DNA from: a bacterium
GTDB lineage: Bacteria > Babelota > Babeliae > Babelales > RVW-14
Length of the DNA: 64,000 nt
Reading direction: 5' to 3'
NCBI GenBank assembly: GCA_043822925.1
Contig: JBDRBF010000008.1
Coordinates: 25,129-89,128, forward strand
Position numbers and translations under genes: made by a program. How positions within the stretch are numbered: position 1 is the first letter of the stretch; the number at the start of each line of letters is the position of its first letter. Positions 52,134 to 64,000 of the stretch are shown here, one piece after another. Below the pieces are notes generated by a model. That model searched no databases and was not told the DNA's origin. It saw only the letters and a list, made by a program, of their open reading frames with translations.

Positions 52134-54473
52134 TTACCCAATAACAGACTGCTTCTCTCGCTCATCAATAATCACCGAAGTCTCTGGAGCATTTATATTA
52201 ATATTTTGCACTGGCGCAATATCTTTTTTTGCATGATTCTGAAAACCTAATTGGACAATAATATCAATAAACTCCATAGGACGTATTCCAACTTCAGCCG
52301 CTTGATGAAATAAGCACGTTGCGGGCGTTAATGCAGGCAAAGAGTTTATTTCCAAAATAACAACTCGCTGTTTGCCCGTAGGACTCTCAAGAGCGCTTTG
52401 ATAAAAGCAATCAATACGAACGTAGCCTTTACAGTCAATCGTTTTGTATACGCCACCGATAGCATCCTGAACAAGAGAAATTTGTTCTTCACCAAGAGGC
52501 GCTGGCGTAATATTAGACCCAGCTCCTGGTAAAAACTTTTCTCTGATAGAAAGTACCCCTGCCTGTGCAACAGCCTGAGATGGCGGCAATACAGTAACAA
52601 TATCGTTACCGTAAGCGCCACAAGTTAGTTCCATACCAATAATAAGTTCTTCAAGCATAGCAACAGATTTTCCTGCATCAAATATCGCATTACATGCAGC
52701 AATAAGCTCCTGCGTATTCTGTACTTTTTGTACAAACATACTACAACCATCATCATGAGGTTTTACAACGAGCGGGAAGTTAAGAACCCCACTCAAACGC
52801 TCACTTAAATAAGCTTCTTGTTCTTGTTCTGTTTTTTTACTCAAAATAGATTTGGAAATAAGTATAGATTGTGGTACATCAAAGCCTTTAGCTCTCAAAA
52901 ACGTGTTTGTTTTGTTCTTATCCATACACAAAGCGCTGGCTAAAACCCCAGAGCCATTATATGGCAAACCAAGCATCTCAAGAGCCCCCTGAACCGCTCC
53001 ACCCTCACCTTTACCACCATGAAGAGCAATAAACACAAAATCATAATTTTTTGGCAAATCTGCCCACTCAAGAGCACTATCAGGTAATTCGGAAACAAGC
53101 TCTGCTATAATCCCTGTCGAATTTTTAATCAAATATTTTTGCGTAAGCTTAAATAATTTCATGTCGTGCTTAACAAATACTGGCGTAACATCATATTTTT
53201 CTGGTGATAATTTATAACAAACGTTACGTCCAGACTCAAGCGATATCTCACGTTCGTTTGTATCGCCACCAAGCAACACTGCTACGCGTATTTTTTTTAC
53301 GTCAGAACCATTCACACCCGACATACCAGCCCCACTCTCTTTTTTTCCAATTACTGTCGCCAGACCATAGCGCGCAAGTTCATGTTCAATCAAGAAATTA
53401 ATCAACTGTGTATGGCTCATGCCAACTTCTGCAGCTTGGTGAAACAAAAACGTTGCAGGCCCCATGCCTGTAAGTGAATTAGGATCAATAATAACAACTT
53501 CACCATCTTTGGTTAAAAAACCATCAGTCCGCGAAATAGTCGCTAACCCTAAAACTTTTGCAACCTGCTCACAAACATCAATAATTTTTGCCTGATCTTT
53601 TTTACTACAACGAGCAGGCGTAATCTTAAGCGCACGGCCCGGCATATATTTTTGATCATAATCATAGAACTCTGAATCAGATTCTTTTACAACTTCTGTA
53701 ATAGGAAAAGAAAACCATTCGTCTTGCCCCGTTCCCGTAACTGGATTATATGCATCTTGATGCTTTTGCAACGATACACATACAAACTCTAGACCATCGA
53801 CTTTTTCTTCAACAATTACATCCTGAACATAACTATTATCAGCTCTTGATGCTGCATGTATTGCAGACAAAAGATCAGTTGCATCATGTGAAACACTAAT
53901 GCCCAAACTTGAGCCCTCGTGTGCAGGTTTTACGATATAAGGGAAAGAAACGTTAACGGCACTTAAGCGTTCGATTACTTGCTGACTTGTTATATTTTGC
54001 ATTTCACTCGCTTTAACAACAACACCAGCAGGAACACGAATATTATGAACGTTAAGAACCTCTTTTTGAAAGGCTTTGTCCATCGCCAAAGCACTGCCCA
54101 AAACTTTAGCCCCCAAATAGGGGATCCCTAAAATTTCCAACATGCCCTGAAGCGTTCCATCTTCGCCATAACGTCCATGAACAGCTATATACACAAAATC
54201 GACTGCTTCTTTTAACGCATCCCATGTAAGCCGTTGCGCTTCACCATCTAAACGACTCTGAAAATCTGCAATTTTCCCCCGATGCAAAAAACGCCAAGGG
54301 AGTAAATATATTTGCCCATCTTCGTCTTGAAAAAGGGGGATAATGTCATACTTATTCGTATCCAGATGGTCACAGATTGTTCGCCCGGAATTTAGTGAAA
54401 CTTCACGTTCAATAGACCGTCCGCCCATTAACACACCAACTCTATATTTGTGCATTACATGCTTTGCGCTCAC
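52134..54473 (-). CDS. ddl: Tandem two-domain D-alanine--D-alanine ligase-family protein
   Basis: Two complete Ddl modules: GGRSIEREVSLNSG..HGRYGEDG..MDK and GGDTNEREISLESG..HGGKGEGG..MDK. Confidence 0.88.
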   Translation of the reverse strand: MSAKHVMHKYRVGVLMGGRSIEREVSLNSGRTICDHLDTNKYDIIPLFQDEDGQIYLLPWRFLHRGKIADFQSRLDGEAQRLTWDALKEAVDFVYIAVHGRYGEDGTLQGMLEILGIPYLGAKVLGSALAMDKAFQKEVLNVHNIRVPAGVVVKASEMQNITSQQVIERLSAVNVSFPYIVKPAHEGSSLGISVSHDATDLLSAIHAASRADNSYVQDVIVEEKVDGLEFVCVSLQKHQDAYNPVTGTGQDEWFSFPITEVVKESDSEFYDYDQKYMPGRALKITPARCSKKDQAKIIDVCEQVAKVLGLATISRTDGFLTKDGEVVIIDPNSLTGMGPATFLFHQAAEVGMSHTQLINFLIEHELARYGLATVIGKKESGAGMSGVNGSDVKKIRVAVLLGGDTNEREISLESGRNVCYKLSPEKYDVTPVFVKHDMKLFKLTQKYLIKNSTGIIAELVSELPDSALEWADLPKNYDFVFIALHGGKGEGGAVQGALEMLGLPYNGSGVLASALCMDKNKTNTFLRAKGFDVPQSILISKSILSKKTEQEQEAYLSERLSGVLNFPLVVKPHDDGCSMFVQKVQNTQELIAACNAIFDAGKSVAMLEELIIGMELTCGAYGNDIVTVLPPSQAVAQAGVLSIREKFLPGAGSNITPAPLGEEQISLVQDAIGGVYKTIDCKGYVRIDCFYQSALESPTGKQRVVILEINSLPALTPATCLFHQAAEVGIRPMEFIDIIVQLGFQNHAKKDIAPVQNININAPETSVIIDEREKQSVIG

Positions 54474-59085: not shown

Positions 59086-59125
59086 AAAAAACCCCCGACA
59101 AACCGGAGTTTGTCGGGAGCTTTTT
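59086..59125 (-). terminator. Intrinsic terminator
   Basis: CCCGACAAAC/GTTTGTCGGG stem flanked by A and T tracts. Confidence 0.75.
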
Positions 59126-59154
59126 ATAACGTTCTTAAAAACTAGAACAAATAC

Positions 59155-59454
59155 TTATGCAGTTTTTGTATCTTCTTTTGAATCTTTTTCTAATTCAGCA
59201 AATGCTTTTTCTAAATCTTTTGCTACATCTGCTGTTGTTACGTCTTTTGTATCTTCTTTTGCTACAATGTCTTCTTTGACTTCATTAGCTGCTACAACAA
59301 CTTCAGCTTTTGCTTCTGCTTGTACTGCTTCTTGTACTACTGGAGCTTGTGCAACAACCGCTGTTTCTTCTTGAGCACTAGGACAAGAATCACACGCGTT
59401 AACAACATTTAACGCAAACAAGCATACGCCTGCAAGTAATAATATCTTTTTCAT
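59155..59454 (-). CDS. Small acidic Ala/Glu-rich secreted protein
   Basis: Signal peptide MKKILLLAGVCLFALNVVNA, then CDSC; own promoter and terminator. Confidence 0.75.
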   Translation of the reverse strand: MKKILLLAGVCLFALNVVNACDSCPSAQEETAVVAQAPVVQEAVQAEAKAEVVVAANEVKEDIVAKEDTKDVTTADVAKDLEKAFAELEKDSKEDTKTA

Positions 59455-59512
59455 AATCATATTCCCTTTGAAATAAAACAAATACACTTCTGAAACTATG
59501 ACGCTCTTTCAT

Positions 59513-59540
59513 ATTGTAAATTATTTTACTTATTTGTCAA
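59513..59540 (-). promoter_or_regulatory. Sigma70-type promoter
   Basis: TTGACA-16 nt-TACAAT on the minus strand. Confidence 0.55.
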
Positions 59541-59721
59541 TTCGCCTAAGATAGCTTTATCTACAATACACTCACCCAAACCAGCTTTTCACTCTTTTTG
59601 CCCTTTTTTGCCAGTATATTCTATAAAAAATGCGCAAAAATAAGAATTTTTCAGTTTGTAACAAATTAAAAAATGAGCGCCGATCTTAGTAAAAAAGCAA
59701 AAAATCTATCGAGAACAAGTT

Positions 59722-61320
59722 TTACGCTTTTTTAACCTGCTTAATTTTCTCGTTAATTACGTACTCTACAATATCTTTTGTCAAAATATTGGCACCTGAA
59801 CGATACGCCCGTAAACGCATCTCTGCTACAGAATAATCTAAATCACGACCAGAAAAACCGTCTGTTTTTTCCGCAATCTGTTCGAGATAACTATCTGTAA
59901 CCGCAGGATCTATCGTTAAAGAAGCATTTATAGCAACCCCATCTTTTACATATGTTCGCGCATCATTCTCAATATACTTACCCATCTTAAGCTTTAAAAT
60001 CTTAAATCGCTCAGCTTGGGCAGGCAACTCAAATGGCACCTGCTTATGAATACGGCTCAAAACTGCTGAATCAAGAGTATCTTTATAGTTTGTTGCCAAA
60101 ATAATCATAAACTTGTCTGAACTAGTTCCCGTCTGAGACAAGAAAGAGTTCACCAAATCAACTTCTTCTTTACTTAACTTTGCACGGTCTTTAAAACAAG
60201 CATCAGCTTCGTCGATAAATAAAATCAGGCCTTTTTTACTCTGACCAGCCCAATCAAATAATGCGCGCAACTCCGTAACATCTTCACCATTCTTAAACTG
60301 CGCAAAATCTGCACCAGAAAATATCGCATAATCCATTCCAGAAAGATACGCGAGCGTTTTTGCCATTTCTGTTTTACCGGTTCCAGGAGGACCGTAAAAT
60401 AACGCATTTTGATAGGGCAGCCCGTAATTTTTTGCTTCAACAATATCCGTCGCTAGATACTGCATCGCCAAAGCTATATCAGGCGACACAACAATATCTT
60501 CTAATTTACGTATCTGTTCTACAGGAAAAAGTAAATTTTTAAGCCACCCAGATAGCCCCGTACGTGATGATTCGCGTACCAGCGTTGGCTTGCCCAAATA
60601 AGCTTCTAACTGTGCAAGCGCAAGCTTAGCCCCATAATAAGCGCCGGTCATACCGACTGCTGTTAGCGTTGCAAACAAAGCTGCTTTAGTAAGCTTTGAA
60701 GAATCAGAAAAGCTCTCAATCATTAACTGAAAACGTGCAAAATCACCCTTGTTTTTTTCAGCCTGCCCTGCTGCTGCTTTGGCTGCTGCCGTCGCGATAG
60801 CTGTTTTACGTGTTTTTTCATCTTTATAAATATCAGTAACAACATCAAAACCCTTAACCAATATTGTTTGCACGCCGTCACCAATTTTATCACCACGGGC
60901 AACAAGCTTATCATGATCTTTTTGCAACCGTGCGATTTTATCCTCAAGCCGCTTACTATCCTGATCATATAATTTATTTTTTTGCTCATACTCAGCCGTA
61001 TTTACTTGTCCGTTATCTTTAGCTTGTGCAAGCACAATACGTTCCTGACCTATACGGCTCAATTCACTTTCATACTTCTTTATTGCCGACATAATTTGTA
61101 AATCATGTTCATAGCCAGCTTTATGGGCCTCGTCAATCACCTCAGTAAAGCCCTGCACCATATCGCTTGCATTAATATCTAACCCTGCGACATTAATTTT
61201 CATATCGCCAAGCGCTTGTACTCCATTATTTCCAGAAACAGAAAAAGCACTGCTTACACCACAAAAATAAAATACTAACACAATAAACACACGTGTTAAA
61301 AAACCAAATATCTTAATCAT
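59722..61320 (-). CDS. ATAD3-like AAA+ ATPase with signal peptide, coiled coil and TM segment
   Basis: LGKPTLVRESSR; Walker A GPPGTGKT; SGMDYAI; LFDWA; Walker B FIDEAD; sensor ATN; Arg finger SAVLSR; FSGRD. Confidence 0.9.
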   Translation of the reverse strand: MIKIFGFLTRVFIVLVFYFCGVSSAFSVSGNNGVQALGDMKINVAGLDINASDMVQGFTEVIDEAHKAGYEHDLQIMSAIKKYESELSRIGQERIVLAQAKDNGQVNTAEYEQKNKLYDQDSKRLEDKIARLQKDHDKLVARGDKIGDGVQTILVKGFDVVTDIYKDEKTRKTAIATAAAKAAAGQAEKNKGDFARFQLMIESFSDSSKLTKAALFATLTAVGMTGAYYGAKLALAQLEAYLGKPTLVRESSRTGLSGWLKNLLFPVEQIRKLEDIVVSPDIALAMQYLATDIVEAKNYGLPYQNALFYGPPGTGKTEMAKTLAYLSGMDYAIFSGADFAQFKNGEDVTELRALFDWAGQSKKGLILFIDEADACFKDRAKLSKEEVDLVNSFLSQTGTSSDKFMIILATNYKDTLDSAVLSRIHKQVPFELPAQAERFKILKLKMGKYIENDARTYVKDGVAINASLTIDPAVTDSYLEQIAEKTDGFSGRDLDYSVAEMRLRAYRSGANILTKDIVEYVINEKIKQVKKA

Positions 61321-61381
61321 AAAAATCCCCAAATTTAAACGATACCCCGTACCCACAATTTACTAAAAACTTAAATCTTAC

Positions 61382-62773
61382 TTATCTGCTCACTTTATCC
61401 ACATTGCACACTATTTTATTCTCGTTCTGTACATCAGACGCAACATAAATCTTATATGCTATCTGCCCGATTTTATAACACATAGGCACCATAACCAAAA
61501 CGTTATAATACAACTGCCACTCAGCAAGTTTTTGATTTCTCAGTTCTTTCCACAACCCACAAGACATACCACACGTTTCTTGCACAAATTCGCGTAAATT
61601 TTCTTGTGCATTATCATCCTGATCGCGCTGAGCAAGCAATAACTCTTTAAATTCATCTTTATATTTTACGATGCTTCGAGAACAAATAACCGACATAATA
61701 TAATGGTTAAACCACGCCACAAACAACATATTTACCGTAACTTGGCGCACAAAATTAATCGCTTTATGCCGTAAAAAACGCGACATCTGTGTATCAAAAA
61801 AACCATACTGAACCAAAAAGCTATTAACGGTTTCTAAAACATTTGTCGTTGCGTTATTCACCGGCAACTGAAATAGCCACGGGACATCAACCAAACTCGA
61901 GAGAGCTATTGGCTCCCCCTGCAAACTCTGAGGTTGTAAACCACTGGCGTTTTGAACCACTTTGTGTAAAAAGCCAAAAAGACCAACCCGATCTTTTTCA
62001 CTCGATAACCATCGATATCTCAGAGCCTGAGTAATAATATCAGCTACAAAATAGGTCGCAAACGGATTACAAAAACGTTGATCAATCAAATCAGCCCAAC
62101 GCATATGAGCCAGATTACGCAGCTCTGCCTCAAGTAATATATCAGGATTATTTAGACCGAATCCTGCCATGCCCAGCGTAACTTCCTGCGAAACCTGGGA
62201 ATCAAATTCAGAACAACAAATACGAGGCTTTTGGTCGCCACTTGATTCCGCATTGGCCAATGGTTGGCTGGACGCAGCAAGCAACGGCAATAGCTTGTCA
62301 CGCGCAACAATAATACGCTGCGTTATTACATCAACAAAATATGTCTGTAATTTTTTATATAAATAATGGTCAAGCGCCCAACCAGCACCAGCAAATAAAA
62401 GCTCAAACAAATCTTTATTATAAACGCCTATGCGCGGGACACTATCTCCAAACCATTCTTGTACCGGGATTTCTACGATTAAACTATCACCAAAAGCTTT
62501 AAGTTCTTCAAGCCTTTTTTTATCTGGATATAAAACTGAATCAATAAATTCTTGTTCCGTATATTTTTGGCCAAGCGCTTCATATTTTTCAATCGCCTGA
62601 TCGCTTGCATATGCCTGCACTATTTGCTCTATTTCTTCAGACATTTTACCCAAATTATCTTCAGACACATTAACACCAGATAAAATAATCTGCTGCTCAA
62701 GCTGTGCGCACATGCCAAAAGACATGCTCAAAAATAAATATATAAAAATATATGTTCGTTTTTTTATTAACAT
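61382..62773 (-). CDS. Hypothetical exported or membrane protein
   Basis: About 463-aa ORF with signal-like N-terminus and several hydrophobic stretches; 61 nt upstream of the AAA gene. Confidence 0.75.
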   Translation of the reverse strand: MLIKKRTYIFIYLFLSMSFGMCAQLEQQIILSGVNVSEDNLGKMSEEIEQIVQAYASDQAIEKYEALGQKYTEQEFIDSVLYPDKKRLEELKAFGDSLIVEIPVQEWFGDSVPRIGVYNKDLFELLFAGAGWALDHYLYKKLQTYFVDVITQRIIVARDKLLPLLAASSQPLANAESSGDQKPRICCSEFDSQVSQEVTLGMAGFGLNNPDILLEAELRNLAHMRWADLIDQRFCNPFATYFVADIITQALRYRWLSSEKDRVGLFGFLHKVVQNASGLQPQSLQGEPIALSSLVDVPWLFQLPVNNATTNVLETVNSFLVQYGFFDTQMSRFLRHKAINFVRQVTVNMLFVAWFNHYIMSVICSRSIVKYKDEFKELLLAQRDQDDNAQENLREFVQETCGMSCGLWKELRNQKLAEWQLYYNVLVMVPMCYKIGQIAYKIYVASDVQNENKIVCNVDKVSR

Positions 62774-63140
62774 CGTACCCACCAAATATCAAGACCCATA
62801 AATTGCAAACCTAAAGATCCCCCAAGAACCCTTCTATTTACACGCATAATATGCAAACACAAAAACCAGCTTAGCAGCAAAAAAACCTTTATCAAAGGCC
62901 TTTATTAGCAATTCTCAACCTGTAATTAAGAACATACATAAATGCCCACCTGTGGCATCGCCTTACTCATGCCCAAATCTTATTTTCTAGATGCCTCCCA
63001 AATTCTCTGATATAACTAAAAATGCCTCGAGTTGAACCAAAGAAAAAAAACATCGTATTTTCGCTCGAGAACGTTGGAAAAAGGCAACGATTTAACATTC
63101 ATCATGCTTAATAGCATGATATTTTATATAAACTAGAGTT

Positions 63141-63231: not shown

Positions 63232-64000
63232 ATGAAGAAGAACTTGTTCCCAGCACATATCGCCACGAGTACCCTCATCACACTATTCACACTTTTTATA
63301 AACATATTTTTTGCAAACACATGCTTAGGTACAAACTTTTTTGAAAACACGAGCTGGAGCATTACCGGCACCATTCAAATAAACAACTATGACTGGCACC
63401 CAAACGGAAAACACCTTGCGGTTGCATGGCACAACAACGCAGATAACCTGAGAGTCTACTCGTTTGATGGTTCAAATCTCACTTCTATCGTTACAAAAAG
63501 ACTCGGTGCAATGTGCGCTGCTGTATCATGGAGTCCAAACGGCACCTATCTTGCCACAGGAACTGACGGAACAACCAACTTTGCCGTCTGGACATTTAAC
63601 GGAACAACGCTTACTTCAGCCGCCACCCCGGTAACAATCACAAGCTACCTACACTCTATTGACTGGCACCCCAGCGGAAATTATATAGCTGTTGGCTATT
63701 ACACAGGCAGCGCTGGTAGATTTCAGGTATATCGGTTTACCGGCTCAAGTCTTACACCGCTTGGCGCCGCGATTCAGCCAACAGGAAATAGTGAATTGTG
63801 GGTAGTAAAATGGAGCCCAGACGGGAACTTTCTTGCAGTTGGGAATAGACAAGAATCAACTACAAAAAACCTTGAAGTCTACAACTTTAATCCCTCAGCA
63901 AGCACGCCACTTACCGTCACCGCTGCAAACCAAAAAAATTACGGGCCTTCTTATCTTTTTTCTGTTGCCTGGAGACCTGACGGCAAATATCTTGCCATCG
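63232..64000 (+). CDS. Secreted WD40-like beta-propeller protein; partial, runs off the window end
   Basis: Hand translation: AAGGAG RBS; hydrophobic N-terminus; repeats DWHPNGKHLAV, SWSPNGTYLAT, DWHPSGNYIAV, KWSPDGNFLAV, AWRPDGKYLAI. Confidence 0.9.
   Translation, partial: MKKNLFPAHIATSTLITLFTLFINIFFANTCLGTNFFENTSWSITGTIQINNYDWHPNGKHLAVAWHNNADNLRVYSFDGSNLTSIVTKRLGAMCAAVSWSPNGTYLATGTDGTTNFAVWTFNGTTLTSAATPVTITSYLHSIDWHPSGNYIAVGYYTGSAGRFQVYRFTGSSLTPLGAAIQPTGNSELWVVKWSPDGNFLAVGNRQESTTKNLEVYNFNPSASTPLTVTAANQKNYGPSYLFSVAWRPDGKYLAI

Follow-up and report, generated by a model that had tools for sequence, protein, structure and literature searches.

The 64,000-nucleotide stretch of contig JBDRBF010000008.1 analysed here (hereafter the window, with positions counted from its first letter) comes from a protist-dwelling member of the Dependentiae and carries on its minus strand, at 59722..61320, a gene coding for a protein of 532 amino acids plus stop codon. 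Sequence comparisons strongly support this protein as a true homologue of the mitochondrial AAA+ ATPase ATAD3 and place it among the many bacterial members of this family; its motifs mark it as a putative single-ring AAA+ ATPase, catalytically intact and of the ATAD3 type. Immediately upstream lies a conserved, previously unrecognised gene predicted to encode a second membrane-anchored protein. Some members already bear the label ATAD3A/B from the automatic annotation of JGI; what is new is that the family, previously described in eukaryotes alone, has a bacterial branch, together with the conserved partner gene. ATAD3 itself is essential and disease-linked, and its mechanism is poorly understood.

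The open frame of the ATPase gene occupies 59722..61356 on the minus strand and reaches upstream to a GTG codon at 61356, and the ATG at 61320 was taken as the start because it is preceded by a Shine-Dalgarno-like site. The gene and its product contain the following features:

61326..61330, minus strand: GGGGA Shine-Dalgarno-like site as read from the sequence, 5 nt ahead of the ATG at 61320
61240..61320, minus strand: N-terminal hydrophobic leader, residues 1-27 (Kyte-Doolittle 2.24)
60706..61233, minus strand: proline-free, charged, helical-type domain, residues 30-205, predicted to be periplasmic
60628..60684, minus strand: transmembrane (TM) helix, residues 213-231, Ala/Gly/Thr-rich, moderately hydrophobic, homologous to the ATAD3 TM helix
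60562..60597, minus strand: juxtamembrane motif LGKPTLVRESSR, residues 242-253, specific to the ATAD3 family and containing P245
60028..60402, minus strand: AAA core, residues 307-431 (Pfam AAA, E 9.6e-25)
59779..59886, minus strand: AAA lid, residues 479-514, with GFSGRD (R492), a weak Pfam match

The motif strings claimed for this gene by the initial annotation, ALFATLTAVGMTGAYYGA, LGKPTLVRESSR, NALFYGPPGTGKT, SGMDYAI, LFDWA, GLILFIDEAD, FLSQTG and KFMIILATN, are all present in the 532-residue translation. So are all the classic features of the AAA clade, namely Walker A (residues 310-317), Walker B (D370/E371), sensor 1 (N411) and the arginine finger in the second region of homology (R423).

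Ahead of the AAA core, some of the parts initially proposed hold only in a narrower form. In the leader, K3 and R10 precede the hydrophobic core and small residues follow it; residues 1-27 would thus be either a Sec-type signal peptide that is cleaved or an uncleaved N-terminal signal anchor, and of the proposed signal peptide the hydrophobic leader stands while cleavage cannot be told from anchoring. A similar leader is found in 59 of the 66 full-length bacterial-type matches and in 39 of 48 genome-derived relatives. The domain that follows has no proline among its 176 residues, and heptad-like periodicity is significant only at about residues 37-78 and 121-169 (z 2.5-4.9); over the whole of residues 30-205 it is not (z 1.4). 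Helical segments are supported by these figures, but the single long coiled coil of the first description is not shown. For this domain the ESM Atlas gave a weak lead to ATAD3_N clusters.

Membership in the ATAD3 family is borne out by the protein search, profile alignment, phylogeny and a pore-loop trait. A search against 5.8 billion proteins gave 644 matches, and among the best 120 of these, ranks 2-66 are uncultured bacterial proteins, for which the eight organism labels present read Candidatus Dependentiae (4), Candidatus Babeliales (3) and 'bacterium' (1) and five of which bear the JGI label 'ATAD3A/B'; the next matches are eukaryotic ATAD3 proteins from Perkinsus (1.5e-62), Theileria and many plants (about 1e-51 to 1e-47). 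BLASTP aligned the protein with a plant protein named ATAD3B1 at its source (36% identity over 351 amino acids, E 3e-60) and with the ATAD3 of Fabomonas (37% over 310 amino acids, E 5e-63). Alignment of a profile of 59 bacterial sequences with one of 22 eukaryotic ATAD3 sequences by hhalign had a probability of 100 and an E-value of 2.6e-97 over 349 columns, spanning residues 191-532, that is, beginning about 25 residues ahead of the TM helix and continuing to the C-terminus. The order of a TM helix followed by a G-K-P-x-L-V-R-E-x-S-R-type juxtamembrane motif, some 60-100 amino acids before Walker A, is present, and P245 of this motif is kept in 50 of 51 Dependentiae and in 31 of 31 eukaryotes.

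The Pfam family ATAD3_N (PF12037) gives a more uneven picture. The 532-residue protein scores 20.7 bits, below the cut-off of 25, with residues 204-249 aligned to profile positions 220-265, the last 46 of 265 only. ATAD3_N is matched at E<=0.001 by 11 of 59 bacterial relatives, several of them above the cut-off (P0017 at 45.7 bits; L076 at 27.7 bits over profile positions 40-264). Judged by this profile, the domain would be missed in the window's copy yet is recognisable in the bacterial branch. The catalytic residues are nearly invariant in the 51 genome-verified Dependentiae sequences: the Walker A lysine and Walker B aspartate in 51/51, and the Walker B glutamate, sensor-1 asparagine and arginine finger in 50/51 each. 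In 10 of 12 outgroups the residue two places ahead of the pore-loop glycine is aromatic, vs none of the 51 Dependentiae and none of the 31 eukaryotes; the lack of this aromatic in pore loop 1 is a derived trait common to bacterial and eukaryotic ATAD3-type proteins.

That the protein might instead be a generic bacterial AAA ATPase of the FtsH or Cdc48 kind, resembling ATAD3 by chance in its motifs, is suggested by its best solved-structure matches (p97/Cdc48), by the top NCBIfam model (FtsH) and by the lack of an ATAD3 chain among the PDB matches listed. Against this, the FtsH model scores 81 bits where its cut-off is 600, Pfam yields only P-loop ATPase domains and ATAD3_N, and eukaryotic ATAD3 proteins match better than FtsH by at least 30 orders of magnitude, over a span that includes the TM helix and linker. 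The bacterial and eukaryotic sequences also form a joint clade with support of 100/99 (ultrafast bootstrap, UFBoot/Shimodaira-Hasegawa-like approximate likelihood ratio test, SH-aLRT) and share the loss of the pore-loop aromatic. We therefore rejected chance resemblance on the combined homology search, profile alignment, tree and pore-loop data, and regard it as extremely improbable. Grouping with FtsH or Cdc48, or the lack of an export signal, had initially been named as tests that would speak against ATAD3 kinship; the tree and the export-type leader gave the opposite result on both. A derivation of ATAD3 from SpoVK/CbbX-type AAA proteins was likewise dropped, because the name 'SpoVK/Ycf46/Vps4' attached to outgroups is a generic label; no SpoVK/CbbX model occurs among the 15 NCBIfam matches.

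The ATPase gene is genuinely bacterial. Its eukaryote-like family name is the one thing that might suggest a eukaryotic gene brought in by mis-binning or by a chimeric contig, and nothing else favours such an origin, to which we give practically no credence. The GC content of the window is even, at 0.34-0.42 with 0.39 at the ATPase gene, and the GC skew is negative in all of its 2-kb bins (-0.12 to -0.32). The neighbourhood consists of bacterial housekeeping genes, among them aspS, the phosphatidylserine decarboxylase gene psd, rpe, a double-length D-Ala-D-Ala ligase gene (ddl) and priA, and the Shine-Dalgarno-like site and compact operon spacing are those of a bacterial gene. Homologues of the ATPase also sit in closed or single-contig genomes of 1.1-1.5 Mb (e.g. 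G041, G018 and G082). On these grounds a eukaryotic contaminant or chimera was ruled out.

The genome itself (1.52 Mb in 86 contigs, 92% complete) holds three ATAD3-type paralogues, the window gene (on contig C8) and two others, on C39 and C33, with 55% and 36% identity to it; each of them has the same parts, namely leader, helical region, TM helix and AAA domain. The C33 paralogue (L003 527-1447, minus strand) has no upstream partner gene and overlaps by 22 nt a downstream open reading frame (ORF) of 306 amino acids, whose product has a leader and a mid-protein TM helix and is unrelated to the partner family.

The distribution of the family in Dependentiae was surveyed with the 532-residue protein as query at E<=1e-30, which as a single-query survey gives a lower bound. 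Matches were found in at least 76 of 201 sampled genomes, corresponding to 68 of 177 high-quality genomes and 51 of 121 genera, with 1 to 6 copies per genome; by family code, they reached 23 of 23 genomes in f1 and 8 of 9 in f12. Tandem arrays of three ATAD3-type genes occur at L045 (G071:C3:36000-46000), where two of the three have a partner gene of their own, and at L042 (G077:C7:24000-31500). Five control genomes from other phyla gave matches to the AAA core only (1e-14 to 4e-21), and none of 401 sampled Pseudomonadota genomes gave a match at 1e-28.

A DNA scan for K-F-M-x-x-[LF]-A-T-N in one genome per species gave 60 matches, 20 of which fall in ATAD3-type genes; the remaining 40, including all those labelled Bathyarchaeota, Bathyarchaeia or Bathyarchaeum, are not associated with such a gene. 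The record titles of the 20 name Dependentiae, TM6, Babeliales or Chromulinivoraceae (6), 'uncultured Pseudomonadota bacterium' (6), 'bacterium' (6) and Chlamydiota (2). The 'Pseudomonadota' titles of L179, L185 and L216 (also L193, L200 and L208) point to an apparent conflict of taxonomic labels in the public records, since L179, L185 and L216 seem to correspond to G077:C16, G026:C1 and G081:C54, from genomes placed in the window's own phylum. The two chlamydial members come from a metagenome-assembled genome (MAG) of Rhabdochlamydiaceae (L184) and from a 'Chlamydiae bacterium' (L197), where the gene has a FabF-type synthase and a TLC ATP/ADP transporter as neighbours. The ATAD3-type family is therefore not confined to Dependentiae: with a chlamydial query at E<=1e-30, members were found in 18 of 300 sampled Chlamydiota genomes, several with 2-3 copies. 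ATAD3_N was matched at E<=1e-4 in neither of the two chlamydial members scanned, and several chlamydial members (L218-L227) have Gly/Ala/Ser-rich N-termini and no Sec-type leader. Other searches for related loci were less productive: the DNA motif L-G-K-P-x-L-V-R-E-[ST]-[ST]-R had no match, the 532-residue protein alone retrieved only 4 loci, and in an alignment-based search the 80 loci retained of 416 were generic AAA genes of many phyla at E 2e-22 or weaker. Dominance of the Walker A pattern accounts for this last result, and the matches, most of which began near residue 304, are uninformative for distribution.

The ATPase gene does not stand alone. Its upstream partner is

61382..62785, minus strand: partner gene, 467 amino acids, with an N-terminal leader, a C-terminal TM helix and no known family

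The stop codon of the partner lies 61 nt before the ATPase start with no terminator-like site in the gap, and we infer that the two genes are co-transcribed. The 467-residue protein has no Pfam match, no Pfam family matches more than one of 18 members, the best PDB profile match has an E-value of 0.11 and the ESM Atlas gave no usable match. BLAST links that are weak but recur (E 1e-4 to 1e-67) tie it to genes directly upstream of other ATAD3-type genes, and an alignment of 18 such sequences has shared blocks at a mean identity of 16%. The partner gene is fast-evolving. With a profile built from this alignment, a partner-family gene was found upstream of 16 of 49 ATAD3-type genes in 40 fetched regions; in 15 of the 16 cases the gap is -13 to +38 nt, and in one (L044) the distance is about 560 nt. 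Family codes f1, f12, f4, f9 and f15 all include examples of the cassette, and the profile finds exactly two partner genes in the window's genome, each directly upstream of an ATAD3-type gene. The partner is absent from a large subclade of f2, f3, f5, f6 and f9, which includes the Chromulinivoraceae-labelled sequence, and from the subclade of C33-type copies.

Phylogenies were computed from the segments running from the TM helix to the C-terminus, with the genome's own FtsH and bacterial multi-AAA domains (those named being from Marinobacter and a cyanobacterium) as outgroups. With FastTree, on 272 and 320 rows, the eukaryotes fell into a single clade (support 100 and 75) inside the bacterial diversity; its named members include ancyromonads (Fabomonas), Holomycota (Fonticula), Apicomplexa, Perkinsus, green algae and plants. 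A quick IQ-TREE analysis (LG+C20 with posterior mean site frequencies, PMSF) of 94 rows, namely 51 genome-verified Dependentiae, 31 eukaryotes and 12 outgroups, left out redundant plants and all unnamed bacterial-type database proteins; it gave support of 99 to the whole family and 99 to the eukaryotes, with a weakly supported backbone. In a more careful tree of 61 rows and 327 columns, the ATAD3-type family was separated from FtsH and the multi-AAA outgroups with the 100/99 given above, the eukaryotes received 93/78, the eukaryotes plus two Dependentiae sequences 98/92, and this group plus the Dependentiae f17/f9 clade 99/95. When 9 chlamydial and 5 further titled Dependentiae rows were included (L219 was dropped as too short), the eukaryotes again formed one clade (86), and the Chlamydiota formed another (support 100, stem 1.04) beside the f17/f9 Dependentiae.

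In these trees the bacterial genes are not nested within any sampled modern eukaryotic lineage, and the ATPase gene does not appear to be a recent capture of a host gene. The maximum-likelihood trees lean toward eukaryotic ATAD3 arising within bacterial diversity. One tentative, and in our judgement rather doubtful, scenario is that eukaryotic ATAD3 was acquired before the last common ancestor of eukaryotes (LECA), from a Dependentiae-like intracellular bacterium in which the paralogues had already split; if true, ATAD3, an essential organiser of the mitochondrial inner membrane, would have arisen neither within eukaryotes nor from the alphaproteobacterial endosymbiont. The nested position of the eukaryotic clade, at 99/95 and 98/92 and with the same pattern in the other trees, would fit such an origin. 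Against it stand approximately unbiased (AU) tests, in which a tree with a single Dependentiae clade was not rejected on 94 rows (log-likelihood difference 1.40, p 0.48) or on 61 rows (14.16, p 0.116), and possible long-branch attraction, as fast bacterial paralogues drawn to the long outgroup branch may give the same nesting. The distribution of the family, which is nearly universal among eukaryotes and patchy among bacteria that depend on them, favours transfer from eukaryote to bacterium. Neither topology is rejected by the AU tests, and the phylogeny, which the initial annotation proposed for setting the direction of transfer, is compatible with either direction.

As to function, we give about an even chance to an inner-membrane AAA+ ATPase of FtsH-like topology, with a periplasmic helical domain and a cytoplasmic ATPase. 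The N-terminal leader would send the helical domain of about 180 residues across the inner membrane into the periplasm, and the second hydrophobic segment would stop transfer and anchor the protein, leaving the AAA ring in the bacterial cytoplasm. Such a layout would be the FtsH order of TM helix, periplasmic domain, TM helix and cytoplasmic AAA, minus the protease, and would equal the topology of mitochondrial ATAD3, with its AAA domain in the matrix and its N-domain pointing outward. The protein most likely would form hexamers and work together with its partner, and ATP hydrolysis could organise or tether the envelope, or move cargo such as scavenged host lipid; threading of proteins is not expected because the pore-loop aromatic is missing. 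According to passages of PMC4776705, TM6 bacteria lack fatty-acid synthesis and take up host lipid by unknown means. Export of the whole protein, as first proposed, lacks support: to judge from the second hydrophobic segment and from its need for ATP, the AAA domain would remain in the cytoplasm.

Several observations weigh against this inner-membrane role. The TM segment, noted as one TM helix in the initial description and homologous to that of ATAD3, is only moderately hydrophobic (hydropathy 1.13 over 19 amino acids vs a median of 1.46 among 50 relatives), and counts of lysine plus arginine on its two sides (2.64 vs 2.60) do not discriminate its orientation. Signal sequences are carried by 44% of the proteins of one Dependentiae isolate, according to PMC6561590, and secreted AAA proteins have been proposed in Babela in part of PMC4378268. 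All the bacterial holders found so far, Dependentiae and Chlamydiota, live inside eukaryotic cells, and such restriction to obligate associates of eukaryotes resembles the classic pattern of eukaryote-like effectors. The patchy distribution (76/201 Dependentiae), the copy number of 1-6, the tandem arrays and the long branches would likewise be more in character for host-interaction genes than for a core envelope machine.

These points would be accommodated by a secreted, host-targeted ATAD3 mimic, a serious rival reading that we consider less likely. The leader would export such a protein, its TM helix would insert into host (mitochondrial) membranes and host ATP would drive organelle remodelling, with the partner as co-effector or chaperone. 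A eukaryote-like protein found in intracellular bacteria only (76/201 Dependentiae and 18/300 Chlamydiota, vs 0/401 Pseudomonadota), its multiple copies, tandem arrays, fast evolution and N-domains of 66-427 amino acids, and the chlamydial copies in which Gly/Ala/Ser-rich N-termini replace the Sec-type leader would all be in keeping with such a mimic. Passages of PMC6561590 describe Chromulinavorax as wrapping the host mitochondrion around itself, and a Chromulinivoraceae-labelled MAG (L215) does hold a family member; the link to Chromulinavorax drawn at the outset has this much in its favour, but is indirect, as that member belongs to another subclade, one without the partner gene. Conversely, proteins in which a stop-transfer helix comes after a Sec leader normally finish up in the inner membrane, the cassette partner is also membrane-anchored, and the family nests inside no modern eukaryotic lineage. 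In the 92%-complete genome, moreover, three secretins were found, but neither a type III secretion export gate (FHIPEP) nor the type IV secretion protein VirB4.

Around the cassette, other elements of the window may be described. Downstream of the ATPase gene, the gene string ends after a small ORF at

59086..59125, minus strand: strong terminator-like hairpin of 18 pairs, following the 110-amino acid ORF

This ORF (59155-59487, minus strand) encodes an acidic, secreted-type protein of 110 amino acids with a leader ending near a Cys, and an 11-of-12 promoter-like site (59540-59513) lies upstream of it; no homologue was found in 17 related loci. At 52134-54473 (minus strand), a 779-amino acid ORF consists of two full tandem D-Ala-D-Ala ligase units, the Pfam N and C domains of this ligase each being matched twice. 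A reduced cell envelope has been reported for the Dependentiae phylum. Adjoining the partner gene and divergent from it, a gene at 63232-63999 (plus strand), which runs off the window edge, codes for a signal-peptide-like start and WD40/beta-propeller repeats (Pfam WD40, 2.7e-15). DNA near-identical to 59100-62800 of the window is present in groundwater and biofilm metagenome runs from 4 studies, with word shares of 0.22-0.96; the run with the highest share may be the source sample, and no RNA run is among the listed holders.

The view that ATAD3 is usually treated as eukaryote-specific fits the literature surveyed. According to a 2025 preprint (10.1101/2025.10.06.680775), ATAD3 was first thought to be confined to multicellular eukaryotes; the text terms its own work the first on ATAD3 in a unicellular eukaryote and leaves bacteria unmentioned in its accessible part. 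A literature search found nothing on bacterial ATAD3, nor on ATAD3 linked with Dependentiae, Babeliales, TM6, Babela, Chromulinavorax, Vermiphilus or chlamydia, with prokaryotes or horizontal gene transfer, or with LECA or its origin as regards bacteria; where ATAD3 and TM6 were mentioned together, TM6 had a non-bacterial sense, judged by titles. ATAD3 does not appear in the searched passages of PMC6561590, PMC4378268 and PMC4776705; the supplementary ortholog tables of PMC4776705 and PMC6561590 may list the family.

The bacterial branch offers a simple, single-membrane-system model for the role of the TM-linker-AAA module, and the conserved partner protein is a new candidate to test with an ATAD3-type ATPase. 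Together the sequences form a data set for asking whether, and which way, a core protein of mitochondrial membranes was passed between early eukaryotes and their intracellular parasites, and they provide candidate genes for unexplained envelope biology or host-organelle manipulation in Dependentiae and environmental chlamydiae.

Among known systems, Cdc48/p97 gives the best solved-structure match to the AAA core, with a value of 1.6e-30 that is the sum of two domains at about 1e-12 each. Cdc48/p97 has two rings and an N-domain and lacks both the TM helix and the juxtamembrane motif, whereas the bacterial protein has a single AAA domain and scores 64.6 bits vs 802 with TIGR01243. FtsH is built of an N-terminal TM helix, a periplasmic domain, a second TM helix and a cytoplasmic AAA domain. 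The bacterial ATAD3-type protein shares with it the classic AAA motifs and, as predicted, this same order of parts, but has no M41 zinc protease domain (Pfam) and aligns with the genome's own FtsH over 145 amino acids only (34% identity, E 2.2e-11); FtsH, in contrast, retains the F-V-G pore loop and the double-arginine motif R-P-G-R-F. The AAA-Ulp1 family of Babela massiliensis, in parts of PMC4378268 given atypical predicted signal peptides and proposed to be secreted, is by its description likewise an AAA ATPase of a Dependentiae bacterium, but the window protein has no Ulp1/C48 peptidase domain (Pfam).

Eukaryotic ATAD3 (animal ATAD3A/B, plant ATAD3 and PfATAD3) is the closest counterpart. 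Unlike it, the bacterial protein has an N-terminal Sec-type leader, its gene is multi-copy and set in a two-gene cassette, its N-domain matches ATAD3_N below threshold and over the final 46 profile positions only, and its pore-loop-1 region is one residue longer than in all 31 eukaryotes examined. The order of parts is nevertheless the same, from helical N-domain through TM helix, juxtamembrane motif and AAA core to lid. Both have a moderately hydrophobic, Ala/Gly-rich TM helix about 100 amino acids before Walker A, the G-K-P-x-L-V-R-E-x-S-R juxtamembrane motif, a single AAA core, one arginine in the second region of homology and no aromatic pore loop. The topology predicted for the bacterial protein, with the AAA domain on the cytoplasmic side, also matches that reported in passages of the preprint cited above (10.1101/2025.10.06.680775), where the AAA domain of ATAD3 lies in the matrix.

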